Source of the DNA: Bacillota bacterium
GTDB lineage: Bacteria; Bacillota; Negativicutes; CTSoil-072
DNA length: 64,000 nucleotides
Assembly (NCBI GenBank): GCA_017889545.1
Contig: JAGFZV010000016.1
Span: 9,124-73,123, forward strand
Reading direction: 5' to 3'
The position numbers and the translations under genes are program-made. The notes beneath the pieces were generated by a model. That model was given only the letters and a program-made list of their open reading frames with translations. It searched no databases and was not told where the DNA came from. Positions 4,541 to 41,046 of this stretch are shown here, piece by piece; the first letter of the stretch is position 1, and every line of letters starts with the position of its first letter.

Positions 4541-4565
4541 AAATTTTTCTCCTCCTTTATAAAAT

Positions 4566-9130: not shown

Positions 9131-9230
9131 TTATCATTCCCTCCATACACAAAATTATTACATCATTTTTTTAAAAGCAATATTGAAATTATTCTTTGTA
9201 AAAAGAAATGGACTGAATTTTTTACTGTAT

Positions 9231-11905: not shown

Positions 11906-11949
11906 TACAAGCTCCTTTACAAAAAATAGTTATATCACCAAATCCAACT

Positions 11950-13335: not shown

Positions 13336-13400
13336 CGATCATTCCCCATCTTTCAATTTAATTAACTACCCGGTTTCTTCATGCAAAACAAGTTTGCGTC

Positions 13401-13420
13401 ACCACTATGATCATAGTGGT
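13401..13420. promoter_or_regulatory. perfect 20-bp palindrome ACCACTATGATCATAGTGGT in the glcD-operon promoter (candidate GntR/LutR-type operator)
   Basis: Read directly. A second partial copy aaccactatgatca lies at 13464-13477, and a ttgactatcgtcaa palindrome at 13442-13455. Confidence 0.4.
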
Positions 13421-13579
13421 TAATTGTATCTTGCGAAGTATTTGACTATCGTCAAGATCATTTAACCACTATGATCAATTTGTTTTTGGCTGATTTTATG
13501 CAATTAGATTAAATTATCGTTACTATTTGTGGTAAAATCGTCCTCTAAATATTTTCTCCATACCCTTTCAAAAATTTCA

Positions 13580-15241
13580 TTATGGAAGCATCCAGCCGAG
13601 AACGTAGGCTTGCAAATAAGTCAATACCCCCATAAAGATAACCATCGCAATGCTGTGCGGCAACGCAAACCGGAAGATGGTTGACTCCTGCCCAACCAAA
13701 CCGGTAGCAGCGCACGCAACGGAGATACTTTGCGGCGAAATCATTTTACCGCAAACACCGCCGGACGAGTTGGCCGCCACAGTAAGTGTCGGGTCAATAC
13801 CAAGCTGCTCCGCAGCTGTTTTTTGCATCGAACCAAACAAAGCGTTGGATGAAGTATCTGACCCTGTCAAGAAAACCCCCATCCAGCCCAACAGTGGCGA
13901 GAAGAAGGGGAATAATGCCCCAGTGGCAGTAAAAGCAAGACCCAGCGTAGAGCTCATGCCCGAATAGTTCATGATGTAAGCCAAACCAAGGATCATCGCG
14001 ATCGTGGCAATCGGGAACATCAGTTGCTTGATCGTTCGGAAAAAGCAAGTGAACGCTCTCCCAAAACTATAATTTGGCATAATAAAAATGGAAAGCAGAC
14101 CCGATAAAAAGATCGCTGTACCGGCTGCAGACAAGAAATTGATCGCATAACCGGCCGCATATGGAGTATTTTTAATCACAACAGGAGCCGTTTTAATCAC
14201 GAGGTTATGCAATCCAGGCCAGACCAAAGGAGTCAATCCAAGGGCTTTCTCCCAGCCAACCAGTGTGTTTTTAAAACCAAGGAATTTATCATCCGCCCAT
14301 AAGAATACGAGGACGGCCAGAATCAAGTACGGTGCCCATGCACGCAAAATCTCTCCCATTGAATAGTCACTTTTGGTTATGCCCACAGACGGTTTTTCAT
14401 CCGGAAAATGCCACACCTGGCTCGGCTTCCAGAATTTAAGAAAAACCAGCAAACCAACCATAGTAACAAAAGCTGACGTAATATCCGGCAAATACACGCT
14501 AATGTAGTTGGAAGTATAAAATTGCGTAGCGGCAAAGCAAACACCGGCAACAATAACCGCCGGCAAGACTTCCATTGACCGTTTCCAGCCGCACATTAAA
14601 ACAACCAGCCACAAAGGTACGATAACCGAAAGAAACGGCAGTTGACGGCCAACAACCTTGCTGATCGCCATTGGATCAATACCGGTAACCTGCCCGGCCA
14701 CTACGACCGGAATGCCGATAGCGCCAAAGGCGACCGGCGCCGTATTGGCGATCAGGCAAATACCGGCGGCATAGACCGGGTTAAAGCCAAGACCCACCAG
14801 CATAGCGGCAGTAATTGCCACAGGCGTGCCAAAACCGGCGGTGCCTTCAATGAATGAACCAAAGGCGAACGCGATGAACAACGCTTGCAGCCTCCGGTCA
14901 TCGGTAATCGCCGCCAACGAATTCTTAATAATCTCAAATTCGCCGGATTCGACGGTCATATTATAAACCCAAATCGCGGTGACGACGATCCAGACGATCG
15001 GGAATATGCCTACCATTGCACCATTTAACGTGGCACTAATTGCAAGTCCGACAGGCATTTTAAAAACAAATATTGCAATCAAAATAGCGGATAAAACCCC
15101 GAAAAACGCCGCATTGTGTCCTTTGGACCGTTTAATGCCCAGCATATACAATAAGATAAATAATGGGATCGCTGCAACTAAAGCGGATAAACCGATACTT
15201 CCTAACGGAGCATAGTTCTGAAGCCACATGAATGAATACAC
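13580..15241 (-). CDS. lctP: L-lactate permease (LctP family)
   Basis: 553-aa polytopic membrane protein with an LctP-family N-terminus (MWLQNYAPLGSIGLSALVAAIPL...). Confidence 0.75.
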   Translation of the reverse strand: MYSFMWLQNYAPLGSIGLSALVAAIPLFILLYMLGIKRSKGHNAAFFGVLSAILIAIFVFKMPVGLAISATLNGAMVGIFPIVWIVVTAIWVYNMTVESGEFEIIKNSLAAITDDRRLQALFIAFAFGSFIEGTAGFGTPVAITAAMLVGLGFNPVYAAGICLIANTAPVAFGAIGIPVVVAGQVTGIDPMAISKVVGRQLPFLSVIVPLWLVVLMCGWKRSMEVLPAVIVAGVCFAATQFYTSNYISVYLPDITSAFVTMVGLLVFLKFWKPSQVWHFPDEKPSVGITKSDYSMGEILRAWAPYLILAVLVFLWADDKFLGFKNTLVGWEKALGLTPLVWPGLHNLVIKTAPVVIKNTPYAAGYAINFLSAAGTAIFLSGLLSIFIMPNYSFGRAFTCFFRTIKQLMFPIATIAMILGLAYIMNYSGMSSTLGLAFTATGALFPFFSPLLGWMGVFLTGSDTSSNALFGSMQKTAAEQLGIDPTLTVAANSSGGVCGKMISPQSISVACAATGLVGQESTIFRFALPHSIAMVIFMGVLTYLQAYVLGWMLP

Positions 15242-15805: not shown

Positions 15806-16124
15806 ATTCCAATTATTATTGTAAATTATTTTAACTGAAAAAACAATGTATTTAGACAAGTTAAAATATTAACATGATTTTGCTTTTTGTCCGATCAGCG
15901 AGACACATTACGTTCAAGCACTACTGACTTCATCAATAAAATTGTTATACCATAATTCGGTAAATTTGCTTAGTCTTTTCAAAAAGAAAGATCTAAAACT
16001 TTATAAATTATGTTTTTTGTGGTATCCTTATCCATGTTCCGCTTCCTTATGTTAGAGGTTATGGATAGAGTTCCCTGCCCCATCTCTATTGGCACAGCAT
16101 AAATTTATGAGGAGAGTTGATAAT

Positions 16125-16826
16125 ATGGAGTTAACGAACGAGCAGAGAACTGCATTGAAAGGAAAGGGCTATATCACCATGAAGGACGGCCTTCATTTTT
16201 CCTGCCGGGTTGTAATCTCAGCCGGAAAAATAAGTGCGTTACAAGCCCAAAAAATAACAGAAATCTGTCAATCCTATGGAAAAGGATATTTCACTATAAC
16301 CCATCGCTCCAATGTACAGATCCCATGGGTGCAGTATGAAGACTTGGACAATGTGGCTAAGTCGCTTGAAGAGGCCGGCTTATCGATTGGCGGAACCGGG
16401 CCGAGAGTACGACCGGCTCATAACTGCAAAGGCCCTGCATGTCGGTTCCATTTGTATGATACGGAAGCTGCTGCGCAACAAATGAATGAACGATTTTACA
16501 AGGGTTATTACGACGTTAAACTTCCCAGCAAGTTTAGAATACAACTAAGCGGATGCCCAAACAATTGCGCTAAGACTCAGTTAGGCTGCGTAAGTCTGCA
16601 AGGCAGAAGACCTAATCAAGTAGCTGTTTTAATCGGCGGAATGTCGGGAAGAAACACTATCGTTGGCAAAGAAATAGCCGGCCTTTACTCCATTCCTGAA
16701 GCCATGGATATGATAGAAACCGCTTTGCAATTTTATAAAGAAAACGGTCTTCCAGGTGAACGCTTTGCCAAAATGGTGGATCGAGTAGGGTTCGAAAATG
16801 TCGAGAAAGCTTTGTTAGGCAACTGA
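16125..16826 (+). CDS. nitrite/sulfite reductase ferredoxin-like half-domain protein (siroheme/4Fe-4S type)
   Basis: The track ORF starts at a TTG at 16089. The ATG at 16125 is preferred because of the GAGGAGAG RBS. Cys motifs CKGPACRF and CPNNC match the NiR/SiR siroheme-[4Fe-4S] coupling signature. Confidence 0.5.
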   Translation: MELTNEQRTALKGKGYITMKDGLHFSCRVVISAGKISALQAQKITEICQSYGKGYFTITHRSNVQIPWVQYEDLDNVAKSLEEAGLSIGGTGPRVRPAHNCKGPACRFHLYDTEAAAQQMNERFYKGYYDVKLPSKFRIQLSGCPNNCAKTQLGCVSLQGRRPNQVAVLIGGMSGRNTIVGKEIAGLYSIPEAMDMIETALQFYKENGLPGERFAKMVDRVGFENVEKALLGN

Positions 16827-16854
16827 AAAATTTTTGTTTTAGACAACGCAAAAG

Positions 16855-16908
16855 AAAACATTGGAAGCGCACTGATCCTTGTCAGTGCGCTTCCAATGTT
16901 TTCTTTTT
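16855..16908. terminator. bidirectional Rho-independent terminator (19-bp perfect stem, loop tccttg, T-tract)
   Basis: aacattggaagcgcactga-tccttg-tcagtgcgcttccaatgtt followed by ttctttttat, between convergent genes. Confidence 0.65.
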
Positions 16909-16949
16909 ATAAACGAATCCATAATTCCCTGTTTTATTTATGTTGCAAA

Positions 16950-17768
16950 CTACTCAATCCAAGTTACCTTTAACGGATTTCTGTCGACTAACCGTTTGAA
17001 TGTATATTGGGGATAACCCAGCATCATTGTTCCGGCCACAGTAAATCCCTCCGGTATTTGCATTAATTCTAAAAGTGGTTTATATTGTGAACCTGCAACC
17101 ATTTCTACAAAACCAGCCCAGCAAGTTCCAAGTCCCATTGCTGTTGCATACAATTCTACATACTCCAGTGAAAAACGCGCATTGTCATGTGCCATTTCAA
17201 AACCTTGCGGCGCAATGGCCGCGATCAGACAAGGAGCGTCACGCAAAATAACATCCACGTTTTGTTTACGATAAGCTTCTGCCAATCCAGCAAACGGCCT
17301 TACCCATTCAACCTTATCCGCAAGTTGCTTTTCCAACCAAATTATTGTTGCTTCCGTTATTTTTTTAAGCTTTTCAGCATTTTCAATTACAACATAGGAT
17401 AAGCCCTGCGAATTACAGCCCGAAGGTGCAAATCTAGCAATGTCGAGCAATTTTGCGACCGTTTCTTTGGCTATTTTATCTTTTTTATATTTCCGTATGG
17501 AACGTCGTGACCGCAAAAATACGGCTGCCGTATCTGCATCAATTATTGGATATTTATCTAATGCCACTTGGTTATTAAGTGGTGCTTTCACATGATCCAA
17601 CGCCGCTGTCGGGCAAACTGCCGTACAGTGTCCACAAGCAATACAAGCTGATGCATAAAGCATTTGCGGTCCTTCCGGTCTCATGCCGATAATACCGCTG
17701 GGGCATACCTCAGAACAAATCCCACATTTTATACAAAGATTATGATCAATTTTTAATAGTTCCACCAA
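16950..17768 (-). CDS. 2x[4Fe-4S] ferredoxin-nitroreductase family fusion protein
   Basis: An N-terminal CIKCGICSEVCP / CIACGHCTAVCP pair is followed by a nitroreductase-fold domain. TTG start with RBS AGGGGGG. Confidence 0.6.
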   Translation of the reverse strand: MVELLKIDHNLCIKCGICSEVCPSGIIGMRPEGPQMLYASACIACGHCTAVCPTAALDHVKAPLNNQVALDKYPIIDADTAAVFLRSRRSIRKYKKDKIAKETVAKLLDIARFAPSGCNSQGLSYVVIENAEKLKKITEATIIWLEKQLADKVEWVRPFAGLAEAYRKQNVDVILRDAPCLIAAIAPQGFEMAHDNARFSLEYVELYATAMGLGTCWAGFVEMVAGSQYKPLLELMQIPEGFTVAGTMMLGYPQYTFKRLVDRNPLKVTWIE

Positions 17769-18067: not shown

Positions 18068-19330
18068 TCATTTAAAAGAAAACTTTATCTTGAACTCAGT
18101 CCCTACCCCTATAGTGCTTTTAACACTTATCTTGCCACCGTGCTTATTGACTATCCATTCTCCAATAGCCAAACCCAAGCCGTAGCTTGCGTCATTACCG
18201 GACCGAGCCTTGTCGGCACGGTAGAAACGCTGAAAAATCAAGGGAAGGTCGCTTTCGGCTATGCCGATACCAGTGTCCTTTACGATCAAATCCACGGAAG
18301 CGTCCTTTTTGGTACAAGTTACCGTAATGCTTCCACCGGCCGGAGTGTATTTAACCGCATTGTCGAGCAAAATAACCGACAACTGATAAAGCCTTTCGCG
18401 GTCCCCGGTCATGGCGATAGCCCCCTCAATATTGGTATGAATGCTGATATTCTTGTATGCCGCAAGAGCTTGAAACTGTTGTGTAACATCGACAAGTATA
18501 GTATCAAGCATAACAGGACCCAAATTCAGCTCTAACTCATCGGAATCCGCCCTGGCCAGCGTCAGCAAGGATGAAACCAATTTGCCCATCCGCGTGGACT
18601 GATTGATAATGGCCGCAATTCGCTCACTTTCTTTTTCGATGGAATTGCCGGGATTTTGCAGAAGCAATTCCGCATTAGATCTAATAACCGCGAGGGGCGT
18701 TCTCAATTCATGGGATGCGTCGGCAACAAATTGCCGCTGTTTTTCCCACGCGGCCCTGATGGTCAATAACAGCTTCCGTGTCATGTAATAGGTGAGCAAT
18801 GCGAACAGAACGGCGCCAGCTATGCCGCCTGGCACATTGAGCAGTAGAAAGGTGTCAAGAATATCCACTTCCGATGAAATATTAGCCAGCGCCACCAACT
18901 CTTTGGCAACATAGCTCTCCGTCCCTTCCCATAAAACCGGGTATTGATTTTCGGGGAAGGAAAGCCGAAAAATCCGGTAGGAACTGCCATGAACCTTTGC
19001 CGTGTGGCCGCCGGGCGACGGAGGTTCGTCAAGCAGGGTCTTAATATCTTCAGGGGGAATTCTCCCCGACGGATGAAGATCGATATACCGGTCATTTTCG
19101 TCGCGAATATATACCACCGGCAAGATGCCCATAGGCAATCGCATGGAATGAAACTCCGGCCCCTGATGGGCGCGGTAAAAGCCATTTATTTCGAATTGCA
19201 TATCAGCATCGATTTTTTCATATATCCGGTATTCAAAATACGAGTGGGAAACAACGTTATAGAGGATAAACAAACAGAATATGGCTATGGCATTTAATGT
19301 GGACAGTTTAAGCTGGACATTTTGGAACAA
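18068..19330 (-). CDS. sensor histidine kinase (periplasmic sensor, HisKA + HATPase_c)
   Basis: Two TM segments flank a ~150-aa extracytoplasmic domain. H-box ASHELRTPLAVIRSNAELL and G1/G2 boxes (DTGIGI, GLGLAI) are present. Confidence 0.7.
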   Translation of the reverse strand: MFQNVQLKLSTLNAIAIFCLFILYNVVSHSYFEYRIYEKIDADMQFEINGFYRAHQGPEFHSMRLPMGILPVVYIRDENDRYIDLHPSGRIPPEDIKTLLDEPPSPGGHTAKVHGSSYRIFRLSFPENQYPVLWEGTESYVAKELVALANISSEVDILDTFLLLNVPGGIAGAVLFALLTYYMTRKLLLTIRAAWEKQRQFVADASHELRTPLAVIRSNAELLLQNPGNSIEKESERIAAIINQSTRMGKLVSSLLTLARADSDELELNLGPVMLDTILVDVTQQFQALAAYKNISIHTNIEGAIAMTGDRERLYQLSVILLDNAVKYTPAGGSITVTCTKKDASVDLIVKDTGIGIAESDLPLIFQRFYRADKARSGNDASYGLGLAIGEWIVNKHGGKISVKSTIGVGTEFKIKFSFK

Positions 19331-19391: not shown

Positions 19392-20078
19392 TTATTCCCT
19401 GCCGCTATGGCCTTTTAGCATATAACCAACATTGCGGATGGTCCGGATGATGAAATCGTTCCTTGCTGCAACAAGCTTCTTGCGCAAATGGTGAATGTAC
19501 ACATCCACAATGCCATAACTGCTTTCCGTTTCGAAACCCCAAAGACGGTCGAAAATTTGTTCACGGGTCAAAATGCGTTCACGATTTATTATAAAGAATT
19601 CGAGCAAGTCGAATTCTTTTGTTGTCAGACTCAATGCAAGAGATTTATAAAACCCTTCTTTTTGTTCCAGATCCAAAACCAGTTCTTTGTAGGCAATGGA
19701 AGAATGATTGGGACCATAGCCCTTCCGTCGCAGCAAGGCCCGTGATCTCGCCGTCAATTCAGCCAGTGAAAAAGGTTTTACGAGATAGTCATCCGCCCCC
19801 GTGTTCAGGCCGAGGACGCGGTTTTCCACACTGTCCTTGGCAGTAACGAGCAAAATGGGAATTTGATTGCCCTGATGGCGCAGACGTCTGATTACTTCCA
19901 GTCCATCCACTTCCGGCAGCAGAATATCCAATACCAGCAAGTCATAAATTCCTTTTTGGACCTCGAAAATACAATGATCCCCCTGCCCGGTTTCATCGAC
20001 GGTATATCCTTCCTTCCGCAAGGCATCAGCAATTGATTTTCTGAGCATTTCATCATCTTCGGTAACAAGAACCTTCAT
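19392..20078 (-). CDS. OmpR-family response regulator
   Basis: REC domain (VLVTEDDE...DLLVLDILLP) plus a winged-helix trans_reg_C. RBS AAAGGAG. Confidence 0.75.
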   Translation of the reverse strand: MKVLVTEDDEMLRKSIADALRKEGYTVDETGQGDHCIFEVQKGIYDLLVLDILLPEVDGLEVIRRLRHQGNQIPILLVTAKDSVENRVLGLNTGADDYLVKPFSLAELTARSRALLRRKGYGPNHSSIAYKELVLDLEQKEGFYKSLALSLTTKEFDLLEFFIINRERILTREQIFDRLWGFETESSYGIVDVYIHHLRKKLVAARNDFIIRTIRNVGYMLKGHSGRE

Positions 20079-20225
20079 TTATCAAGCTCCTTTCACCTGA
20101 TTGCTGCAGCCAATAAAATGCCATGCCCTTACACTTCATCGTGTTTTGGAAGATGGCTCACGGCCCGTTCCGTTGGTATTTTGGCCTGATAGCAAGAAAC
20201 TACTAAAAATATTATTAATGACTGT

Positions 20226-20334
20226 ATTATATCACGGTCTTTTTTTATTTTGCGAAAATTTTGGCATATTGAACTTGATTTTAAGAAATTTTTAAGAATA
20301 TTATCCAATAATTATATTATATCATTGTCTTTTC
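20226..20334. promoter_or_regulatory. two copies of the 19-bp direct repeat TATTATATCAnnGTCTTTT (20226-20244 and 20316-20334) in the divergent RR / napG-dms promoter region
   Basis: Read directly. OmpR-family regulators bind direct repeats, so these are candidate binding sites. Confidence 0.35.
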
Positions 20335-20359: not shown

Positions 20360-20986
20360 ATGGCAAAACGGAGGCAAACCCAAACTATGCGTGATGGCTT
20401 TTTGATGACCAGGCGGGGATTTTTGCGAACAGCGGGTCTGACAATCATGATGACCTCCGCCGGAGGCGCCTTAAGTTTCCTTGAACTACATAAACAGTTT
20501 TTACGCCCTCCCGGCGCATTGCCCGAACAAGACTTTCTTGCCCGTTGCCTCAAGTGCCAGAAATGCCTTGCCGTATGTCCCACAAGCGTGATTATGCCGC
20601 TTTCTTTGTCTGAAAGTATCCGTGGGTTAGGCACTCCCGCACTGAATTATAAAAACGGTTTCTGCAACCTCTGTCTCAAGTGTATTGAAGTTTGTCCTAC
20701 CGGAGCCCTCAAGTCCCTACGGCCGGAACAAGTCAGCATCGGTGTGGCCCGGATCGATCCGGCCAATTGCGTTGCGTGGAATTGGATGGGCTGCACCGTA
20801 TGTGCCGCCCAATGTCCGCTTAACGCCATTTCCCTTGACGATGGCAAGCGCCCGGTAGTTGACGCCGAAAAGTGCAACGGCTGCGGCATATGTGAAATGT
20901 CCTGCCCCAGTACGTCCCTTCGCGCATACAACAAGCAGTCTCAGGGAAAAGGCGTCGTAGTGACGCCGCTAAAAAGCGGGGTATAG
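20360..20986 (+). CDS. Tat-exported NapG-like ferredoxin (4x 4Fe-4S)
   Basis: Twin-arginine motif TRRGFLRTAGL and four CxxCxxCxxxCP motifs. An alternative start lies at the ATG at 20387. Confidence 0.6.
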   Translation: MAKRRQTQTMRDGFLMTRRGFLRTAGLTIMMTSAGGALSFLELHKQFLRPPGALPEQDFLARCLKCQKCLAVCPTSVIMPLSLSESIRGLGTPALNYKNGFCNLCLKCIEVCPTGALKSLRPEQVSIGVARIDPANCVAWNWMGCTVCAAQCPLNAISLDDGKRPVVDAEKCNGCGICEMSCPSTSLRAYNKQSQGKGVVVTPLKSGV

Positions 20987-20989
20987 CCG

Positions 20990-21823
20990 ATGAAATTTAA
21001 ACCGAAAATCCAATGGCTGCGTCAATTAATCATTTTATCGCTATTGGGTGTGGTTGTTTATGGAGCTTCGTCGAAGGAAGCATGGGGAACTATTTGTGAT
21101 ATTTGCCCCATCGGACTGTTGGGCGTCTCCGTGGCAGGCAAGGTGCTGTTACCCCAGGCAATGGTGCTGATTGGCCTTGAAGTAGCAGCAGTTGTCGTCT
21201 TGGGGAAGTTTTTTTGCTCCTGGGTTTGTCCTACCGCCCTATTTCTCCGCAATAACAAACCGCAAGTAACCACAGAGCAACAGGCAAGCACGGCAAAAAC
21301 GTCTCTTTCCTCTAACGTCGGAATACTGGGGGCTGCCCTTCTTTCCACTTTACTTGTCGGCTTTCCAATTTTTTGCCTCATCTGTCCCATCGGTTTGGTT
21401 TTTGTATTTATCTTTGCCGTATATAAACTGTTTTCTATTTACCAACCCGGCTGGGAATTGATTGTCGTCCCGGTGGTACTGACGCTGGAATTGCTGTTCT
21501 TCAAATCTTGGTGCCGCTCTTATTGTGCGGTGGGAGCCTTTATGAGCATCATCAGCCGCTTGTTCAGATTTGGCCCGAGCCCCATGATCCAGGGCAAAAC
21601 TTGTTTGGCGGATCAAGGGTGCCGGGTATGCAAGACCAATTGTCCCGAACAGCTTGATCTGCACAAAGACAGTTCATCAGCAACTGCCGATTGCACTCTT
21701 TGTCTTGAATGTTATGAGAAATGCCCCACAAAGGCCGTTAGAATAGGCCTGGGCAAGTCGCCAAAAACACACTTATGTAACACTTCAATAAACGATAATT
21801 CAAGGAGGTCAAGCAATGAATAA
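20990..21823 (+). CDS. NapH-like membrane polyferredoxin (quinol dehydrogenase membrane subunit)
   Basis: TM-embedded CxxxCP motifs (CSWVCPTALF, CLICPIGLVF, CRSYCAVGAF) and two C-terminal 4Fe-4S motifs (CRVCKTNCP, CTLCLECYEKCP). Confidence 0.6.
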   Translation: MKFKPKIQWLRQLIILSLLGVVVYGASSKEAWGTICDICPIGLLGVSVAGKVLLPQAMVLIGLEVAAVVVLGKFFCSWVCPTALFLRNNKPQVTTEQQASTAKTSLSSNVGILGAALLSTLLVGFPIFCLICPIGLVFVFIFAVYKLFSIYQPGWELIVVPVVLTLELLFFKSWCRSYCAVGAFMSIISRLFRFGPSPMIQGKTCLADQGCRVCKTNCPEQLDLHKDSSSATADCTLCLECYEKCPTKAVRIGLGKSPKTHLCNTSINDNSRRSSNE

Positions 21824-24386
21824 TCTCAACCTGACAAGACGGCAGTTTCTGAAAGTCGCAGCCGTCGCCGGCTCAGCTGCATCTCTGTTTCCCCTAGGGA
21901 ATGAAGTCCTCAAGGGATTGGCGACCGCCGCGCCCGCGCAACCATCGGACATGAAAGTCATTCAGAGCGCTTGCCGCCAGTGCTACGGCCGCTGCACAAT
22001 CAATGGCTTTGTCAAAGATGGACGCGTGCTCAAAGTCGAAGGTAAACCAGGGACTTTTTCGGAGGGAACGGTGTGCAGCCGTGCTTTCAGCATCCCGCAG
22101 ATCATGCACAGTCCCCTGCGCATTAAATATCCCATGAAGCGCGTGGGGGCTCGCGGCGAAGGCAAGTGGCAGCGAATCACCTGGGAGGAAGCCTGGGACA
22201 TTATCATCCCCAAAATGAAAGAAGTTCAGGAGAAATACGGCGGGCATACAATCGTCTTCAATAATGGCACAGGCCGGGACCAATTGATTCTGATGACCAT
22301 GCAGAAATGCTTCTACGAAATGGGCAGCACCGGGGGCTTCGGTGTCGGCAATGTATGCAAGATCGCCAACGACGACGTGCAGCGGCGCATTGTCGGCAAT
22401 CCCTGCCAGTTCACCGGGTGGGATGGCCCCAAGACAAAAACCATCCTGATGATGGGACGGGCCCTCTACTCGTGGGGTTATTACGATTGGCTCACTATAA
22501 AACGGGCCCAAGAACGAGGCGCCAAACTGATCGTGGTAGACCCTCGTTACACGGTGGCGGCATCCAAAGCGGATCTGTGGCTTCCTGTCCGCCAGGGCAG
22601 CGATTTGGCGCTCATCCTGACCTTCATCAACATGCTGATCACAGAAAACAGATATGATAAGACTTTTGTCGCCCAGTGGACCAACGCTCCCTTCCTAGTC
22701 AAGGAAGACGGCTTTTTGCTCCGGCAAAGCGATCTGGTCCCCGGTGGAAGCACCGACCAATTCATTGTGTGGGATGAGACATCCAATAGTATACAGCACT
22801 GGGACGCCAAGGCGATGGCCTGGAGTTCCTCGGATGCACAGCCAGCCCTATTGGGTACCCATGCCGTTCCTAGCGGCAAACAGTACAGGACCGCCTTTCA
22901 GGCCTTGGCTGACAGCGTCAAAATGTGGACTCCGGAAAAGGCCGCCGAGGTCACCTGGGTCCCGGCGGAGAAAATTCGGGAAGCCGCCAGGCTTTACATC
23001 GATAACAGCCCGGGCGCCTGCTTCATGCGCGGCCAAAAAATTGAATTCAGCAACCACAGCAGCAGCAAGAGCCATGCCATCGCCATCATGATGGCCCTTG
23101 CGGGCAATCTGGACGCAGAGGGAGGAAACCTGGTCCGTCCTGACACGCCCCATTCGGTAAGCGCCGTGTTTCAAGCATTGCCTCCCCATGGCAAAATCCG
23201 CAAGGAAACTATTGCCAATATTAAAAAATACAGCCTGTGTCCGGGTCAGGCCAAAATTTCCGGTGAGATCGGCGGCTTTGCCGCCGCCACTACCCGCGCC
23301 CTTATCACCGAGAAACCTTTCCTGCCGAGGGTGTACTGGGGTCAGACCACCGAGCCCATGGCTGGCTCTCTTGACAGTCGGCAAGTCTGCGAAGCCCTCA
23401 AAAAATTCGAATTGACCGTGAATGTGGATCTGTTTATGACGCCCACCGGCGAACTGTCGGACATTATTCTGCCTGCCGCTCATCCAAACGAGGTCGACCG
23501 TATCGAATACCCTCAGTCCGGTCACAGTTGGCCGGCGGCCAATACCTGCTCCATCCGTCAACCCTTCGTTCCCCCGCCTGGTGAGTGTCGGGACGATGTG
23601 GATATCATATTTGACCTTGCCAAGCGCATGAATGTGGATATGGGCTGGAAGGACAAATATCACTGGTTTGAGTTTGCTTTGGCTCCCTCCAAAATAACGT
23701 TTGAAGAATTACGAAAAAAAGGTCATCTCACCAGGCCGGTGACTTACCGCCGCTACCAGACCGGAAAGCTCCGCCGTGATAATAAACCGGGCTTTCAGAC
23801 TTCTTCAGGCAAAGTTAACCTGTATTCGGAAGATCTAAAAAAAGACGGTTGGGGACCGCTGCCCGCCTATATCGAAGAGCCCTTCTCCCCTCTGAGCAAT
23901 CCGGAGATGCTTAAGGATTATCCGTATATCTTCTTTACCGGCGGCCGATCCCATGCCTACTTCCACAGCGAATACCGCATGTCTCCCTTCATGCGTGAGA
24001 TTCATCCCTTCCCTACTGTCGAAATCAATCCGAAAACAGCGGAAAAGCATGGCATCAATGATGGCGACTGGGTCTATATCGAGACCCAGCATGGAAGATG
24101 CAAGCAAAGAGCGTGCCTGACCACAGCCATCGCCCCCCACAGCATTCACTGCGACCACGACTGGTGGTTCCCGGAGAAACCCGTAACCGATGACTTGCAC
24201 GGCATTTTTGAGTGCAACCCGAACGCTATTGTCTCTAACGACCGTGTGCACGACCCGGCAGTGGGAACGTCTAATTACGGCGGTCTGTGCAAAATTTACA
24301 AAGCTGAGGACGGACCGCCTAATGGCATTTATATGACAGCCCAACAACTTGAAGCGTTTATGCCCAAAGCGCCGGGGAGGGAGTAA
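21816..24386 (+). CDS. dmsA: Tat-exported molybdopterin oxidoreductase catalytic subunit, DmsA family (anaerobic S-/N-oxide reductase)
   Basis: Tat signal (RRQFLKVAAVAGSAASL), N-terminal Cx2Cx3C...C FeS motif, and a block IKYPMKRVGARGEGKWQRITWEEAWDII that from memory is almost identical to E. coli DmsA. 856 aa with RBS AAGGAGG. Confidence 0.75.
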   Translation: MNNLNLTRRQFLKVAAVAGSAASLFPLGNEVLKGLATAAPAQPSDMKVIQSACRQCYGRCTINGFVKDGRVLKVEGKPGTFSEGTVCSRAFSIPQIMHSPLRIKYPMKRVGARGEGKWQRITWEEAWDIIIPKMKEVQEKYGGHTIVFNNGTGRDQLILMTMQKCFYEMGSTGGFGVGNVCKIANDDVQRRIVGNPCQFTGWDGPKTKTILMMGRALYSWGYYDWLTIKRAQERGAKLIVVDPRYTVAASKADLWLPVRQGSDLALILTFINMLITENRYDKTFVAQWTNAPFLVKEDGFLLRQSDLVPGGSTDQFIVWDETSNSIQHWDAKAMAWSSSDAQPALLGTHAVPSGKQYRTAFQALADSVKMWTPEKAAEVTWVPAEKIREAARLYIDNSPGACFMRGQKIEFSNHSSSKSHAIAIMMALAGNLDAEGGNLVRPDTPHSVSAVFQALPPHGKIRKETIANIKKYSLCPGQAKISGEIGGFAAATTRALITEKPFLPRVYWGQTTEPMAGSLDSRQVCEALKKFELTVNVDLFMTPTGELSDIILPAAHPNEVDRIEYPQSGHSWPAANTCSIRQPFVPPPGECRDDVDIIFDLAKRMNVDMGWKDKYHWFEFALAPSKITFEELRKKGHLTRPVTYRRYQTGKLRRDNKPGFQTSSGKVNLYSEDLKKDGWGPLPAYIEEPFSPLSNPEMLKDYPYIFFTGGRSHAYFHSEYRMSPFMREIHPFPTVEINPKTAEKHGINDGDWVYIETQHGRCKQRACLTTAIAPHSIHCDHDWWFPEKPVTDDLHGIFECNPNAIVSNDRVHDPAVGTSNYGGLCKIYKAEDGPPNGIYMTAQQLEAFMPKAPGRE

Positions 24387-24388
24387 TC

Positions 24389-24955
24389 ATGACCAGAAAA
24401 ATTATGATCGTGGATCTAGACAGATGTATCGGCTGTCATTCCTGTGCAGTTGCCTGCAAACAGGAAAATGGCATCAGCTTGGGAGTGTTTTACAACAAAG
24501 TGCGGACGGTTGGTCCCTTCGGCAATTACCCCGACCTTGAGCTATATTATCTGCCTGTTATATGCCAGCACTGCAATAAACCAGAATGCGTCAATGTATG
24601 CCCCACGGCCGCTTCGTACAAACGGCAAGACGGCATTGTGCTCGTCGACCATAATAAATGCATTGGCTGCCAGTATTGCATCATGGCCTGCCCGTACGGT
24701 GTCCGTACTTATGACAAGGCCAAGGGCGTCATCGAGAAGTGCACTCTGTGCGCCCATCGCGTGGAGGTAAACGAAGTTCCCGCCTGTGTGTCCATCTGCC
24801 CGGGCAAGGCGCGAATCTTCGGCGACCTTGACGATCCCAATTCAGAAGTTTCCAAAGCTGTGCGGGAGGCCGGTTCTTTCCTGCATCGCTTCGCCGATGT
24901 GGGCAATGAACCCGGTGTCGGCTATATTCTAAAAAGCCGGAAATGGAGGAGTTAA
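24389..24955 (+). CDS. dmsB: four-cluster 4Fe-4S electron-transfer subunit (DmsB-like)
   Basis: 188 aa with four Cys clusters (CIGCHSCAVACK, CQHCNKPECVNVCP, CIGCQYCIMACP, CTLCAHR...CVSICP). Confidence 0.75.
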   Translation: MTRKIMIVDLDRCIGCHSCAVACKQENGISLGVFYNKVRTVGPFGNYPDLELYYLPVICQHCNKPECVNVCPTAASYKRQDGIVLVDHNKCIGCQYCIMACPYGVRTYDKAKGVIEKCTLCAHRVEVNEVPACVSICPGKARIFGDLDDPNSEVSKAVREAGSFLHRFADVGNEPGVGYILKSRKWRS

Positions 24956-24956
24956 T

Positions 24957-25874
24957 ATGGAAATACAATGGACGCTTCTCATTTTTAGTCTATTTGTCAG
25001 TCTGGGTATGGGGTCTTTCGCGATTGTGGCCATCACAGAGTTGCGGGGAATCATGCCTGGCATCCGCCTGCCTGGAGCGATTACCAGTCTAGCAGCCCTC
25101 GGCATTGGCAGTGCTGCCAGTTATTTTCATTTGGGTCATCCAGAAAAGATCTTTCATATTCTCGGCAACATCCGCTCCGGCATAGCCCAGGAACTTATCG
25201 TCACCTCCATCGCCAGCGCGGTGATTTTCGTCTATACCGTTTTGCTATGGAAAGATTCCGCGCCTGATGTCCGCAGAAAGCTGGCATTGGTCGGCCTGAT
25301 CCTCTCACCAGTCGTTCCCTTTGCCACAGGTCGGATATATGTGCTAGCCGCACGACCAGCCTGGGATACCTGGCTGCTACCGCTGATGTATGTGGCATCG
25401 GCCGCCGTCCTGGGAGCATTCACCATGTACCTTTGGATAATGCTGCGTGAACCTGACCAGAAGACGCTGGCTACTGTGAACAAAGCGGCGCTGTTGGGGC
25501 AGGTGGCTTTTACCGTAACAATTGCAGCATATTTAATATATGTGGCTATGGCACCCCACCCCCACTCCAGCCGTTCGGTGGCCCGCCTGCTAACCGGCGA
25601 CCTAGCTTTGCTGTTCTGGGGCGCCGTGGTACTTATCGGCCAACTTGGGCCACTGTTTTTGACCTGGCGAAACATGCAGGGGCCACCGACATCTTTACAG
25701 GCCGGTGTTCCAGTCAGCCCCGCATCAGGAGGAATCAGCGGGGCAGTTGCTGCTACAGCTGAAAACCGACTTATTCTGGCGATTATGGGCTTGCTCTGTG
25801 CGTTGGTCGGTTCGACGGCCATCCGGATGATTGTCTATCTTATCGGCAGCAGCGTACAGTCATACATCTATTAA
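24957..25874 (+). CDS. dmsC: membrane anchor subunit (DmsC family)
   Basis: 305 aa and about 8 TM segments. The FHLGHPEKIF motif matches the E. coli DmsC LHLGSPMRAF region. RBS GGAGGAG. Confidence 0.65.
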   Translation: MEIQWTLLIFSLFVSLGMGSFAIVAITELRGIMPGIRLPGAITSLAALGIGSAASYFHLGHPEKIFHILGNIRSGIAQELIVTSIASAVIFVYTVLLWKDSAPDVRRKLALVGLILSPVVPFATGRIYVLAARPAWDTWLLPLMYVASAAVLGAFTMYLWIMLREPDQKTLATVNKAALLGQVAFTVTIAAYLIYVAMAPHPHSSRSVARLLTGDLALLFWGAVVLIGQLGPLFLTWRNMQGPPTSLQAGVPVSPASGGISGAVAATAENRLILAIMGLLCALVGSTAIRMIVYLIGSSVQSYIY

Positions 25875-25960
25875 AGCTGAGCCCAATCCTTTACCTCGCC
25901 ACTGCAGTTTGTCACAGGCAGACGCAGGCAGGCAGTCTACATGCAGAAAGGTGTTTTAAA

Positions 25961-26635
25961 ATGAACGAACTTAATACCCTCGAACTTGAACAGCTATTTT
26001 CCTTCCGGGGTGCCATATACCAGTTGCTTTCCCGGTTCTATCGCCGGGAAATGGATCAAGAACTTCTGAACCAACTACACCAACTGGAATTTGAAGCGGA
26101 TATCACTTTACCGGAAATTCTGGAAGGTAATCGATTGTTGAAGATCTTCTTGGCACAGATGGGAGAAAATGCGCTGACCGATCTTGCGGTAGACTACGCA
26201 AAGATTTTCCTCGGAGCAGGTCCAACATGCGGGGAAGGAGCATATCCCTATGAATCCGTATATACCAGCCCCGACCGCCTGCTGATGCAAAACGCCAGAG
26301 ACCAGGCTGTCGCCATCTACAGAAGCGAGGATATCCGACTTGAAGACAGCTTCAACGAACCGGAGGATCATATTGCCATTGAATTGACATTCATGGCTTA
26401 TCTATGCCAGAAGACTTCGGAGGCAATCCGTCGCAACGATGAAGCTGCCGCCAATAGCTGCCTGCTGAAACAGCGACAATTTCTTCAAGATCATCTGCTA
26501 TCTTGGGTACCCAATTTTTGCGCCGATGTTCAGCGCATTGCTGCAACCGACTTTTATAAAGCGATTGCTATGATTACGTATGGTTTTCTTATCATGGATC
26601 GGGATATGACTTTAGGCAAGCATAGCACAACTTGA
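25961..26635 (+). CDS. TorD/DmsD-family redox enzyme maturation chaperone
   Basis: 224 aa with an EPEDHIAIELTFMAYL motif typical of the TorD family, located directly after dmsC. Confidence 0.65.
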   Translation: MNELNTLELEQLFSFRGAIYQLLSRFYRREMDQELLNQLHQLEFEADITLPEILEGNRLLKIFLAQMGENALTDLAVDYAKIFLGAGPTCGEGAYPYESVYTSPDRLLMQNARDQAVAIYRSEDIRLEDSFNEPEDHIAIELTFMAYLCQKTSEAIRRNDEAAANSCLLKQRQFLQDHLLSWVPNFCADVQRIAATDFYKAIAMITYGFLIMDRDMTLGKHSTT

Positions 26636-26698
26636 GCCCAAGGCCTTATAACGACTACATTGGCAGGTTTTAAAACAAAAAAATCGTTGATATAAAGC

Positions 26699-26737
26699 AA
26701 AATAGCTTGCCACTAATCTGGCAAGCTATTTTGCACC
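26699..26737 (+). terminator. Rho-independent terminator of the dms operon
   Basis: aaatagcttgcca-ctaatc-tggcaagctattt followed by a T-run. Confidence 0.6.
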
Positions 26738-27035: not shown

Positions 27036-28160
27036 CTAAAAATCCATAATTTCCGGTTTATAGTCGTCAGGCAATTCTTCTTCCTGTAAAAATTTGAAAT
27101 TGTCATCATTCAGTATAGGGATAAAGATTTCGTATGGAATCATAGAGAACTCACAAGCATAATTACTTGCGCCGAACAACATTCCTGCTTTGCTGCTCAG
27201 ATTTAAACCTCTTGCAAACTTTGTGTAGTTTGAACAATCATGAACAGCTAAATCCCAGTTTTCCTCGTCAGCTATTTTCATGAACTGCAAAGTTAACTCC
27301 CTGCTCCAAATTGGAGAAATATAGCCATGTCGGGAGATATACATATTTTCCCCATAATAATTACCTATGTTATTCTCGTTCAAATGGAGTTCCGCACAGT
27401 TGATGAAATCGAGCTTTGTTTCGAATATTGCCTGCTTTTTCTTGAAAAATGCTTCGAAAAACTCAGGAGTCATCGGAGTTTCGATACCGACACTGTGAAT
27501 ATATTTTTTCGCTAAGCCAATATTTTCAATTACTTTGTCTGAACACGCAGAGGCGCCTAGGTTGAAACGGATCTCATCAAGACCGGCTTCTCCTAATGCT
27601 TTCAATGTCTCTTCTGTAGCCAAAGTGCCATTCGTGTATAAATGTTGATGAATTTGAGCATCACTAAATTTCTTTATAACCGAATAATATTTTTCAATTT
27701 CCATGAAAGGTTCTAAATAAACATAGGAAATCCCCGTAGGTTTTGGGTAAACGGAAAGAAGCAGTTCAATATCCTTCTCGTAAAATTTCGTGCCGCCAAT
27801 TTCCCACAACCCTTCTCCAACTGGATGAATATCTTCCAGCTCGCCATAATTATAACAGAACTTACACTCTAAATTACATTTGTTCGTTTTCCTGATTGCA
27901 CTCAACCCAGTGCCTAACAGACAAGATCGACATCCTTGGGGGAATTTGCTTTCATTGCCTACAAAAAAAGTTCTATTTTCCAAAGTTTTTAAATTTCTAA
28001 TTTCCGACATCAACAGTTCATTTCTATGATCAATTGCTGCCTCAATTTGCGCAAAGGTAGAGTAAATGATTTCTTCATGTTTTACACTAATTTCTTCTTC
28101 CTCCGACAATTGTGCAAAAAAATCAAACCATATCAACGCATCATTCTTTGAAATTTTCAT
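27036..28160 (-). CDS. radical SAM enzyme (QueE/NrdG/PflA-like CxxxCxxC activase-type core, with a distinctive N-terminal extension)
   Basis: 374 aa with the canonical cluster motif KCNLECKFCYN. Upstream is CRSC plus a ~90-aa N-terminal region. No SPASM domain. Very AT-rich codon usage. Confidence 0.55.
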   Translation of the reverse strand: MKISKNDALIWFDFFAQLSEEEEISVKHEEIIYSTFAQIEAAIDHRNELLMSEIRNLKTLENRTFFVGNESKFPQGCRSCLLGTGLSAIRKTNKCNLECKFCYNYGELEDIHPVGEGLWEIGGTKFYEKDIELLLSVYPKPTGISYVYLEPFMEIEKYYSVIKKFSDAQIHQHLYTNGTLATEETLKALGEAGLDEIRFNLGASACSDKVIENIGLAKKYIHSVGIETPMTPEFFEAFFKKKQAIFETKLDFINCAELHLNENNIGNYYGENMYISRHGYISPIWSRELTLQFMKIADEENWDLAVHDCSNYTKFARGLNLSSKAGMLFGASNYACEFSMIPYEIFIPILNDDNFKFLQEEELPDDYKPEIMDF

Positions 28161-28200
28161 AACGCATCCGCCTATCTATTTCATTTTAAACTTCACATTC

Positions 28201-28353
28201 TTACCAATTGTGAACGTTCTCTTGATTCCGTCTCCACGCTTCTTGACACAGCTCGAACCGAATCAAACTTGTACCCTCAATGATATATTCGTATCGTTCA
28301 TCCACTGCAACTGAACCTGAATTGAAGCAACATGCTTTACTTCCTTTCATCAT
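28201..28353 (-). CDS. hypothetical 50-aa small ORF between ATP-grasp and radical SAM genes (possible precursor/substrate peptide)
   Basis: The ATG directly abuts the ATP-grasp TAG stop (translational coupling). Product: MMKGSKACCFNSGSVAVDERYEYIIEGTSLIRFELCQEAWRRNQENVHNW. It is below the 60-aa track cutoff and was found by manual translation. Confidence 0.2.
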   Translation of the reverse strand: MMKGSKACCFNSGSVAVDERYEYIIEGTSLIRFELCQEAWRRNQENVHNW

Positions 28354-29571
28354 CTACTTTACTGTCAATTTAAAACTAGCGAAGGCATCGAATAATTTCT
28401 CTTTAAGACGCTCATAATCCGTATCTTCAATAATAATATATCCTGTTCGTACGGATGAACTACTCTGCGTCATCAAGCGATCGCCAGGCTTATTTAAAAA
28501 CGTGATCTCTTTGATGCCGTCCAAATGAGAAAAATCTTTTTCAGTAGAGATATCGACTAATTGACCCGCCTTAGACGGAAATGCAAGATACCCGGTAAAA
28601 ACGGGTCGATCATTCACGGCCTCCGCGTCATAGTGATTTATCGCTACGTCAATAAAAGCTTTATTAATATTAAGTCCCCGAGTGTTTTTTATACAAGCTC
28701 CAATACATGGCGATCCCCCGATTCTGGCTGCAATCTCGCCAAGATAAATTTTTCCCTCCCGCGTGACAAAAACCTCCATATGACAAACGGCATTTTTTAT
28801 GTCATAACAGCAAATAAGGTGCTCATTGAAATGCTTAATCTCCCGAATTATCTCATCGCTGTCGCAATACGCCGGAAATGCGATTGACCCTTTAGGCTTG
28901 CCATTCCTCACTGTATCCAAATTATTAAACAAGTTCTTTCCGACTGAAGCAAACATCACCTTTCCATTCAAAACAACTGAATCACAATGATATTCTTCTC
29001 CGTCGATAAAATTTTCGACAATAAACTCCCTATGCCGAACCAACATCTTGATTACTCTAAAGAAAAAAAAATCCTTAAAGGTATTTACTCTGTAAGTGCA
29101 TCTAGTGCCAAATCCACTCACCGGCTTTATAATGATCGGATATCTGTTTTCTTTTATGAATGCACACACATCAACCAGACTCTTTGCCAGTTTGCATTTT
29201 GCCGTAGCAATACCGTGCTTGAGAGCTGTCTGTTTCATAATATATTTATTGCGAACCTGAAGCGTTTCGGTATAATTCATACCGGGTATATTAAATTTCC
29301 CCCGTAAATATCCGGCTAACTCCACCACCGCTTCATACGTTCCATAAACGGCCCGCACCTGCTTAGTTTCAAGGATGCCGGCAAAGGCCTTTTCCACTTC
29401 ATCTCTACGCTGTATGTCAGACACAATCAGAATTCTGTCGTAATGACGATGCAGCACAGTAATATCGATCTTTCGCTTCCGATCCACAATAACTACTTTA
29501 TAATAGTCGTTGTACCCGGCAAGAAATTGATGAATATATGGAAAATCCAACAAAAAAACCAAAGCGTTCAT
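28354..29571 (-). CDS. ATP-grasp domain ligase (carboxylate-amine/L-amino-acid-ligase-like)
   Basis: 405 aa with ATP-grasp signatures (PIIIKPVSGFGTRCTYRV; EYHCDSVVLNGK; HMEVFVTREGKIYLGEIAARIGG). Confidence 0.6.
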   Translation of the reverse strand: MNALVFLLDFPYIHQFLAGYNDYYKVVIVDRKRKIDITVLHRHYDRILIVSDIQRRDEVEKAFAGILETKQVRAVYGTYEAVVELAGYLRGKFNIPGMNYTETLQVRNKYIMKQTALKHGIATAKCKLAKSLVDVCAFIKENRYPIIIKPVSGFGTRCTYRVNTFKDFFFFRVIKMLVRHREFIVENFIDGEEYHCDSVVLNGKVMFASVGKNLFNNLDTVRNGKPKGSIAFPAYCDSDEIIREIKHFNEHLICCYDIKNAVCHMEVFVTREGKIYLGEIAARIGGSPCIGACIKNTRGLNINKAFIDVAINHYDAEAVNDRPVFTGYLAFPSKAGQLVDISTEKDFSHLDGIKEITFLNKPGDRLMTQSSSSVRTGYIIIEDTDYERLKEKLFDAFASFKLTVK

Positions 29572-37165: not shown

Positions 37166-37187
37166 GCAGAATACCTCCTCATAAATT

Positions 37188-38459: not shown

Positions 38460-38538
38460 GAAACAATCTTCCTTCCACATCGATATTTTCATCTGCACTG
38501 GTAACCCACAAACTTCACATCTTCTTCCGGTAATCGGT

Positions 38539-39543: not shown

Positions 39544-39544
39544 C

Positions 39545-40828: not shown

Positions 40829-40899
40829 GTATACCTCTTTTCCCATAAAAAGTATTCCGCTGAGTTTGACTGAAAAGAAGGACTCTATTTTAATTTTCT

Positions 40900-40918
40900 C
40901 ATTTGCCCTAAGCAAATG
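40900..40918. promoter_or_regulatory. palindrome CATTTGC-cctaa-GCAAATG about 75 bp upstream of the otnK-like operon
   Basis: Read directly; a candidate operator for the acid-sugar operon. Confidence 0.3.
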
Positions 40919-41046
40919 CAACATTCTTTTTATTATTTACATGCTAACGCGCCGCATCGTCCGGCATTATCGAATGCAGTTCCTAATTCAAAAAACACTT
41001 TTCCTCCTGACCTTAACCAATTCATCGGACAAAGTGAATACTGCGA

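Follow-up and report, generated by a model that had tools for sequence, protein, structure and literature searches.

The stretch of DNA analysed here (64,000 nucleotides, hereafter the window) comes from contig JAGFZV010000016.1 of a Bacillota bacterium of the class Negativicutes (assembly GCA_017889545.1) and carries, at positions 20360-26635 of its plus strand, six genes for a molybdoenzyme and its partners, which we call G, H, A, B, C and D. An original prediction had read them as a NapGH-type quinol dehydrogenase module joined to a complete DmsABC reductase of S- or N-oxides with its chaperone, DmsD. We found that the six genes form one operon and that NapG-like and NapH-like genes are indeed joined in it to an A-B-C molybdoenzyme and a TorD-like chaperone; the identity given to the enzyme, however, did not hold. 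Judged by model scores, metal ligand, nearest structure and position in a tree, the catalytic subunit A belongs to the branch of acetylene hydratase and the catechol dehydroxylases and is not a DmsA.

Organisation of the operon

All six open reading frames are present on the plus strand and closely packed. The first, G (20360-20986), would encode a NapG/DadhG-like ferredoxin with four 4Fe-4S motifs, exported by the twin-arginine translocation (Tat) pathway, and the second, H (20990-21823), a NapH/DadhH-like integral membrane polyferredoxin. They are followed by A (21816-24386), the predicted Tat-exported catalytic subunit of 856 amino acids, which would hold a bis-molybdopterin guanine dinucleotide (bis-MGD) cofactor, with Cys181 as metal ligand, and an FS0 iron-sulfur cluster; by B (24389-24955), a four-cluster iron-sulfur electron-transfer subunit of 188 amino acids with 16 cysteines and no signal peptide (Pfam Fer4_11); and by C (24957-25874), a haem-free membrane subunit of the NrfD/DmsC type, of 305 amino acids and with at least seven hydrophobic segments by hydropathy. 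The last gene, D (25961-26635), encodes a maturation chaperone of the TorD/DmsD family (224 amino acids; Pfam Nitrate_red_del, 121 bits), a homolog of DadhF.

Three nucleotides separate G from H, H and A overlap by 8 nucleotides, and the spacers between A and B and between B and C measure two nucleotides and one. The spacers or overlaps of 2-4 bp that had been described thus give a mostly correct picture for these four tight junctions, but not for C and D, which are separated by a gap of 86 nucleotides, D being preceded by its own ribosome-binding site. The true start of G may be 20387, since a GGAGG lies at 20370, a public gene call has 199 amino acids and the alignment with the ortholog begins at residue 8.

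The whole unit, including the two regulatory genes described below, is syntenic with a locus (L089) in a Sporomusaceae metagenome-assembled genome (MAG; GCA_031460455.1), with protein identities of 77-91%. Ratios of nonsynonymous to synonymous substitution rates (dN/dS) between the two lie at 0.06-0.19 for all eight genes (the six of the operon, the histidine kinase and the response regulator), indicating purifying selection.

Downstream of D, a hairpin with a perfect 16-bp stem (26697-26734), found in a terminator scan and in the sequence, lies between the operon and a convergent radical-SAM gene and is the probable terminator of the operon; its T-run is on the minus strand only, and its action on the plus strand is one that we infer. 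Terminator-like sites in the scan were about twice as frequent as in shuffled sequence, and only the hairpin 3′ of D was used. Promoter-like sites occurred at chance level. The sole find of the Rfam and tRNA scans of the window was one tRNA-Arg.

The catalytic subunit

Subunit A carries a Tat motif (TRRQFLK), the FS0 motif CxxCx3C...C and molybdopterin domains. The very strong identity to a block of Escherichia coli DmsA that had been noticed is real at residues 100-129, where 24 of 30 positions are identical, but the motif is family-wide, being the same in Cldh and in acetylene hydratase, and overall A is only 25-27% identical to E. coli DmsA. A reaches the cut-off neither of the dmsA_ynfE model (TIGR02166; 248.8 bits, cut-off 777.7) nor of the DmsA-specific model (NF011566; 171 bits, cut-off 1600). 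Its best NCBIfam match is PhsA, with 307.9 bits, less than half of the cut-off of 694.

Comparison by phmmer with reference sequences (the source data of PMC7028382 and E. coli K-12) places the catechol dehydroxylases and their relatives first. The scores are 332 bits for Cldh, 325 for Cadh, 303 for Dodh, 287 for Dadh, 277 for acetylene hydratase and 213 for Hcdh and, on the same scale, 196 for a PsrA-like protein (Psr-like references range from 137 to 196), 182 for DmsA, 177 for YnfF, 65 for TorA and 60 for NapA. The solved structure closest to A by sequence is also that of acetylene hydratase (E 3.8e-81), and this enzyme (2e7z) came first when an AlphaFold2 model of A (pLDDT 81) was compared with known folds (E 1.4e-51, target-normalised TM-score 0.85), whereas the DMSO reductases appear at rank 20 or beyond.

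The metal-ligand column of A is occupied by Cys181, which is invariant in 24 relatives and aligns with Cys141 of acetylene hydratase and with the cysteine of Dadh, Cadh, Hcdh, Cldh, Dodh and Psr, while DmsA, YnfE, YnfF and TorA have a serine in this column; the ligand residue, which had been proposed as a check on the DmsA assignment, consequently speaks against it. The position of the catalytic Asp13 of acetylene hydratase, beside the second cysteine of FS0, is an invariant tyrosine (Tyr57) in A, and that of Arg506 of Dadh is His420, which is uninformative.

A neighbour-joining tree, built from 791 columns with 100 bootstraps, places A within a clade of acetylene hydratase and catechol dehydroxylases (98% bootstrap) and the Psr and Dms/Tor groups outside it. 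The subclade to which A belongs has 100% bootstrap. Phylogenetic placement, the other check that had been put forward for a DmsA, therefore gives the catalytic subunit a different clade. The curated scores, the 25% identity, the Cys ligand, the fold ranking and the tree together rule out that A is DmsA. A Psr/Phs identity, suggested by the top NCBIfam match, was rejected on the sub-cut-off scores and the tree, and so was acetylene hydratase itself, given that Tyr57 replaces Asp13 and that A has a Tat signal and comes with partner subunits.

The partner subunits

Subunits B, C and D are members of broad families. B, with its 16 cysteines, finds its best NCBIfam match in TtrB/DsrO/ArrB, and C matches Pfam DmsC with 47.5 bits and NrfD with 39.8 bits. 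The curated models for such partners are not reached (DmsB, 148.5 bits against 214.1; DmsD, 50.4 against 162; TorD, 116.9 against 132), and the matches that pass are limited to generic Pfam families (DmsC, Fer4_11 and Nitrate_red_del). All six subunits, in fact, stay below the curated cut-offs of every specific NCBIfam model.

The same applies to the ferredoxin pair. G has a Tat motif (TRRGFLR), an LRPPGA motif and 16 cysteines in four 4Fe-4S motifs, all of which align with E. coli NapG, and it scores 97 bits against a cut-off of 269 and 86 against 179 with the curated NapG models (TIGR00397/NF007012); by these comparisons it is a relative within the NapG family, not an equivalog. H aligns with E. 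coli NapH over 242 columns at 21% identity (hhalign, 99.6%, E 1.3e-23) and has two CX3C(P) motifs, the second being CX3CA in the window, and a C-terminal 2x[4Fe-4S] domain. With the curated NapH models (TIGR02163/NF007013; NapH/MauN) it scores 59 bits against 213 and 57 against 234. The alignment identifies H as a remote but secure homolog of NapH.

H also has cysteines of its own. In all DadhH-like proteins, DadhH included, cysteines are invariant at positions 39, 129 and 132 of the window protein (in CP and CxxCP motifs), the residues of E. coli NapH at these positions being Asp, Glu and Asn, and Cys36 is additionally present in close relatives. By homology to the published topology of NapH, Cys39, Cys129 and Cys132 would lie on the outer face of the membrane, and the additional cysteines may hold a further iron-sulfur cluster that links H to G.

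Correspondence with the catechol dehydroxylase clusters of Eggerthella lenta

A set made of ABC genes, a TorD-like gene, a NapG-like gene and a NapH-like gene is the published layout of the E. lenta clusters, in which DadhG and DadhH have been noted to resemble NapG and NapH (PMC11887054, Dong et al. 2025). We found this layout at a Dadh locus (L093) whose catalytic subunit is 93% identical to Dadh. Consequently, the combination of ABC and NapGH-like genes, which had been taken for an unusual hybrid architecture, is the normal architecture of the catechol dehydroxylase class, as described in 2025.

For G, H, B, C and D alike, this Dadh locus contains one homolog, which in every case scores above the E. 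coli counterpart. G matches DadhG with 36% identity and 117 bits (E. coli NapG, 32% and 80 bits), and H matches DadhH with 35% and 136 bits, E. coli NapH giving no blastp match at E<=1e-3. For B, the values are 45% and 187 bits with DadhB against 38% and 119 bits with E. coli DmsB; for C, 95-110 bits with DadhC against 42 bits with E. coli DmsC; and for D, 40% and 171 bits with DadhF against 23% and 32 bits with E. coli DmsD.

In a heterologous host, dadhB and dadhD-H are indispensable for activity and the anchor gene dadhC is dispensable, and AlphaFold3 models of the Dadh system place the clusters of G and H in line with those of B (PMC11887054). No homolog of DadhD, DadhE, DadhI, DadR or DadS is present within the 64-kb window. 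Seven loci from the subclade of A likewise lack DadhD, DadhE and DadR, two of these loci having only weak DadhI-like or DadS-like matches (30 and 43 bits), while DadhD/E homologs occur in 13 metagenome loci of the Dadh/Cadh/Hcdh type.

Co-occurrence and distribution

The association of G and H with this kind of catalytic subunit is found beyond the window. They accompany A in all seven of the loci on other contigs in which A is at least 43% identical and the anchor is present (L002; L003, Raoultibacter phocaeensis; L005, Adlercreutzia shanghongiae; L012 and L053, Eggerthellaceae; L089, Sporomusaceae; and L091), a second copy of the window contig (L001) having been left out of the count, and the gene order is either GH-ABCD or ABCD-GH. 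By contrast, the distant soluble loci of the acetylene-hydratase kind, which made up most of the output of a broad-pattern scan of a genome collection with A and were used only as negative controls, have no G or H.

A survey of NapGH-DmsABC co-occurrence had been recommended for the supposed hybrid. Starting from H, we fetched 80 metagenome loci, 46 of them at least 6 kb long, and G adjoins H in 45 of these 46. A bis-MGD catalytic gene lies within 8 kb of H in 29 loci, and its best reference is window A or Dadh/Cadh/Hcdh in 29 of 29; in these informative loci, DmsA, NapA or Psr is never the best reference beside an H homolog. As the search patterns were drawn from the subfamily of window H, these counts describe that subfamily and not all NapH proteins.

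Members of the A subclade come from the genera Raoultibacter and Adlercreutzia, from Gordonibacter pamelaeae and Eggerthella sinensis, and from MAGs of Sporomusaceae and Chloroflexia. Two known activities were considered for such organisms and set aside. Corticoid 21-dehydroxylation (Elen_2451-2454) was rejected as the function of the Eggerthellaceae relatives that are about 45% identical, as its cluster differs (FdhD, ferredoxin, molybdopterin oxidoreductase and SPFH), and the urolithin-forming dehydroxylases (Eadh1-3) belong to the two-subunit type of Gordonibacter and have no bearing on this operon.

A different arrangement is seen in the Chloroflexia MAG (L004, 10001-15800), where an A that is 59% identical is found with B and D and without C, G and H, a DadhI-like ferredoxin (122 bits) being present in their place. 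We may be seeing here the same enzyme in a soluble form or with another electron-transfer wiring.

Regulatory genes and the intergenic region

The divergently transcribed OmpR/histidine kinase pair and the direct repeats in the shared promoter region that had been reported upstream of the operon are confirmed. The response regulator (19392-20078, minus strand, 228 amino acids; Pfam Response_reg and Trans_reg_C) belongs to the OmpR/PhoB family and is divergent from the operon, and its L089 ortholog is 86% identical (dN/dS 0.11). The sensor histidine kinase (18068-19330, minus strand, 420 amino acids; Pfam HisKA and HATPase_c) has, by hydropathy, two predicted transmembrane helices (residues 9-27 and 157-175) around an extracytoplasmic domain of about 130 amino acids, and is 77% identical to its L089 ortholog (dN/dS 0.18).

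The 281-nucleotide intergenic region contains a direct repeat of about 57 nucleotides (20187-20243 and 20276-20333; 76-81% identical, spacing 89-90 nucleotides). Within this larger repeat lies, at 20279-20300, the tandem TTTTAAGAAAT/TTTTAAGAATA (a TTTTAAGAA tandem), with a period of 11 bp, a periodicity that fits a binding site of the OmpR/PhoB type. The 11-bp tandem and the TGTATTATATCA core are kept in the intergenic region of L089, while the larger repeat is only half conserved there. The tandem TTTTAAGAAAT/TTTTAAGAATA is a candidate binding site of the divergent OmpR-type regulator.

A related pair of response regulator and histidine kinase also adjoins the Raoultibacter operon (L003), which has the order G-H-A-B-C-D in common with the window. 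The A subunits of the two, although from two phyla, also group together with 100% bootstrap, and a horizontal transfer of the whole regulated unit is thus suggested.

Neighbouring genes

Several other genes of the window deserve a brief description. Directly beside the histidine kinase, at 16089-17768, lie a small protein with a NIR_SIR domain (plus strand) and a ferredoxin-nitroreductase fusion (minus strand), which are not conserved beside the orthologous operon in L089. Immediately downstream of the operon, on the minus strand at 27036-29571, are a radical-SAM protein and a protein resembling ATP-grasp/L-amino-acid ligases, in a stretch with 40-41% GC against 52-54% in the operon.

Farther away, about 16 kb from the operon, the minus strand encodes a protein of the arylsulfotransferase (ASST) family (3089-4696), a family that acts on phenolic compounds too. 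The block at 7853-15241 (minus strand) is one for lactate utilisation, with a LarA lactate racemase, a CCG/ferredoxin protein, two GlcD-like FAD oxidases and an L-lactate permease, and could plausibly be an electron-donor pathway for the respiration proposed below. At 35438-40924 (minus strand), an ILVD/EDD-family dehydratase, a second LarA-like protein, a PdxA-family dehydrogenase and an SBD_N/NBD_C kinase-like protein form what looks like a catabolic set for acid sugars or four-carbon acids.

Proposed function and alternative explanations

We consider it probable, with some reserve, that the product of the operon is a bis-MGD reductase with molybdenum (or tungsten) that is bound to the membrane, faces the periplasm and is of the catechol-dehydroxylase type, rather than a DMSO reductase. 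Its most likely function would be the reductive dehydroxylation, in respiration, of an organic acceptor that is probably phenolic. It has been shown that catechol dehydroxylation supports respiratory growth and that homologs of these enzymes are present in environmental anaerobes (PMC7028382, Maini Rekdal 2020).

In the proposed mechanism, the TorD-like D would bind the Tat leader of A and aid the insertion of the cofactor, after which the Tat system would export A with B as a passenger, so that A-B may dock on the NrfD/DmsC-like C. As a member of the Negativicutes, the host would have a true periplasm. G would be exported by its own Tat signal and sit on the NapH-like H, both forming a dedicated electron-input module that could draw on menaquinol or, through the two 4Fe-4S clusters of H, on the cytoplasmic side. 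Electrons would then pass from the four clusters of G to the four of B, to FS0 and to the Cys-ligated metal centre of A, which would reduce the organic acceptor; a phenolic or catechol hydroxyl would likely leave as water, and the reaction would serve as a respiratory electron sink. The substrate may be sensed by the extracytoplasmic domain of the kinase, and the OmpR-type regulator would switch the operon on, probably through the 11-bp tandem. Sporomusa species O-demethylate methoxylated aromatics to catechols, which makes a phenolic acceptor ecologically plausible.

The source of the electrons may also be pictured differently. In this variant, the DadhGH-like pair would be more than a further quinol dehydrogenase, namely a continuous transmembrane iron-sulfur wire from cytoplasmic donors to the periplasmic enzyme, and C would serve quinone coupling or energy conservation and not electron supply. 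The predicted outer-face cysteines of H, together with its CX3C(P) motifs on the cytoplasmic face and its two cytoplasmic 4Fe-4S clusters, are what suggests such a wire, and a role of C in coupling is suggested because DadhC is dispensable for catalysis, yet C is under purifying selection here. We regard this variant as quite unlikely.

Several observations weigh against the assignment of the operon to the catechol-dehydroxylase type. The tree is distance-based and has few outgroups, a sister relation of the A subclade to Dadh/Cadh/Hcdh is recovered at only 33% bootstrap, and the identity of A to the characterised dehydroxylases is only 28-31%. DadhD, which has a helicase domain, and DadhE are both required for Dadh activity and were not found at the window system. 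The structure model of H is of low confidence (pLDDT 63), and proteins of the A subclade bear only generic names in public sources. Additionally, the clade also holds a non-redox hydratase, and a molybdenum enzyme of Eggerthella and Gordonibacter is reported to dehydroxylate corticoids that are not catechols. Nor is the substrate class readable from the sequence, as there is no established diagnostic residue set for catechol dehydroxylation; the original prediction had likewise stated that the sequence does not reveal the substrate.

Among the alternatives, the one that survives best keeps A in the same clade and gives it another chemistry. The enzyme could, for example, be a hydratase or hydroxylase that works in the oxidative direction, with C and/or G-H passing its electrons to quinone, or it could reduce a non-phenolic organic hydroxyl or another group. 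Its nearest solved relative is, after all, a hydratase, its subclade is distinct from all characterised dehydroxylases, and the molybdenum-dependent dehydroxylation of non-catechol corticoids is known. Nevertheless, the replacement of Asp13 by the invariant Tyr57 speaks against it, Tat export and ten predicted accessory 4Fe-4S clusters (four in G, four in B and two in H) speak for a sustained electron flow, and the characterised clusters with such an accessory set are all reductive dehydroxylases (PMC11887054). Another chemistry is thus unlikely in our judgement.

The explanation that was initially proposed, a DmsABC-type reductase of S- or N-oxides (DMSO, TMAO or methionine sulfoxide) to which NapGH was added as a second module for the oxidation of quinol, could draw on the 24 of 30 identical residues of the local block, on the generic likeness of B, C and D to DmsB, DmsC and DmsD, and on the fact that Eggerthellaceae respire sulfoxides by means of tungstate-sensitive, unassigned molybdopterin reductases. 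It is very improbable, however, given an identity of 25%, scores far below the dmsA_ynfE and DmsA cut-offs, a Cys ligand, a position outside the Dms/Tor clade and subunits that all resemble the Dadh cluster more than E. coli Dms. We give equally little credit to the idea that the enzyme is a reductase of the Psr/Phs/Ttr/Arr kind, acting on an inorganic compound of sulfur, arsenic or selenium. In its favour, the best NCBIfam matches (PhsA for A, with 308 bits, and TtrB/DsrO/ArrB for B), the NrfD-type anchor and the Cys ligand common to Psr, Phs and Arr could be cited, but it is opposed by a PhsA score of less than half of the 694-bit cut-off, by 137-196 bits for Psr-like references against 277-332 for acetylene hydratase and catechol dehydroxylases, by the exclusion of Psr from the clade at 98%, by a G/H/D accessory set that matches the Dadh clusters and by H homologs that are never found beside a Psr-like enzyme in the sample.

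Taking the catechol-dehydroxylase type as the preferred reading, we can describe the window system as a compact, environmental relative of a known kind of enzyme, in a subclade of its own. A tempting mis-annotation is thereby corrected, public records calling these proteins "anaerobic dehydrogenase" and "NapH", and respiratory systems of this type, including the NapGH-like pair, are seen to reach past the gut Coriobacteriia to a probable member of the Sporomusaceae and other environmental lineages. The six-gene form has neither the helicase-like nor the hypothetical accessory genes that make the E. lenta enzymes harder to express. Hence, it would be convenient for separating the contributions of G/H from those of C, for identifying the substrate of this large subclade, whose members abound in gut metagenomes, and for asking whether environmental anaerobes respire phenolics by dehydroxylation.

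Comparison with known systems

The DmsABC and YnfEFGH systems of E. coli, with DmsD, resemble the window system in their A-B-C logic, in the Tat hitch-hiking of B, in the haem-free anchor and in the use of a redox enzyme maturation protein (REMP) as chaperone. They differ from it in having a Ser ligand where window A has a Cys, in belonging to a different clade and, in the case of Dms, in having no NapGH-like partners.

The NapGH pair of E. coli and Wolinella has the same Tat signal, LRPPGA motif and four 4Fe-4S motifs in G and the same CX3C(P) motifs and 2x[4Fe-4S] domain in H, and a similar role as a membrane electron-input module for a periplasmic reductase. By contrast, the window G and H are far below the curated cut-offs, H has extra conserved cysteines that NapH lacks, and their partner is a catechol-dehydroxylase-like enzyme with its own NrfD-type subunit instead of NapAB, no NapA-like gene being present. 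NapGH-like modules have been described next to another enzyme as well, as they adjoin PceA in Sulfurospirillum (PMC4585668).

Acetylene hydratase from Pelobacter acetylenicus (2e7z) has in common with window A the Cys ligand and the CxxCx3C spacing of FS0, and it is its nearest structure by both sequence and fold. However, it is a cytoplasmic, non-redox monomer with a catalytic Asp13, whereas A has Tyr57, a Tat signal and five partners.

The Eggerthella-type clusters (Dadh, Hcdh and Cadh) differ from the window system in several respects. Window A has 856 amino acids against 952-1193 and falls in a separate subclade, its FS0 spacing is CxxCx3C, as in acetylene hydratase, where Dadh has CxxCx4C, and its regulator is an OmpR/histidine kinase pair in place of the LuxR-type DadR/DadS of E. 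lenta Dadh. Additionally, all the window genes are in a single co-directional operon, unlike those of the Eggerthella-type clusters, and the host is a probable member of the Sporomusaceae (Negativicutes) and not one of the Coriobacteriia. The likeness is nonetheless extensive, as both have a Tat-exported bis-MGD subunit of the same superclade with FS0 and a Cys ligand, a four-cluster B, a DmsC-like C, a TorD-like chaperone and NapG/NapH-like ferredoxins, with one-to-one homology of all six components.

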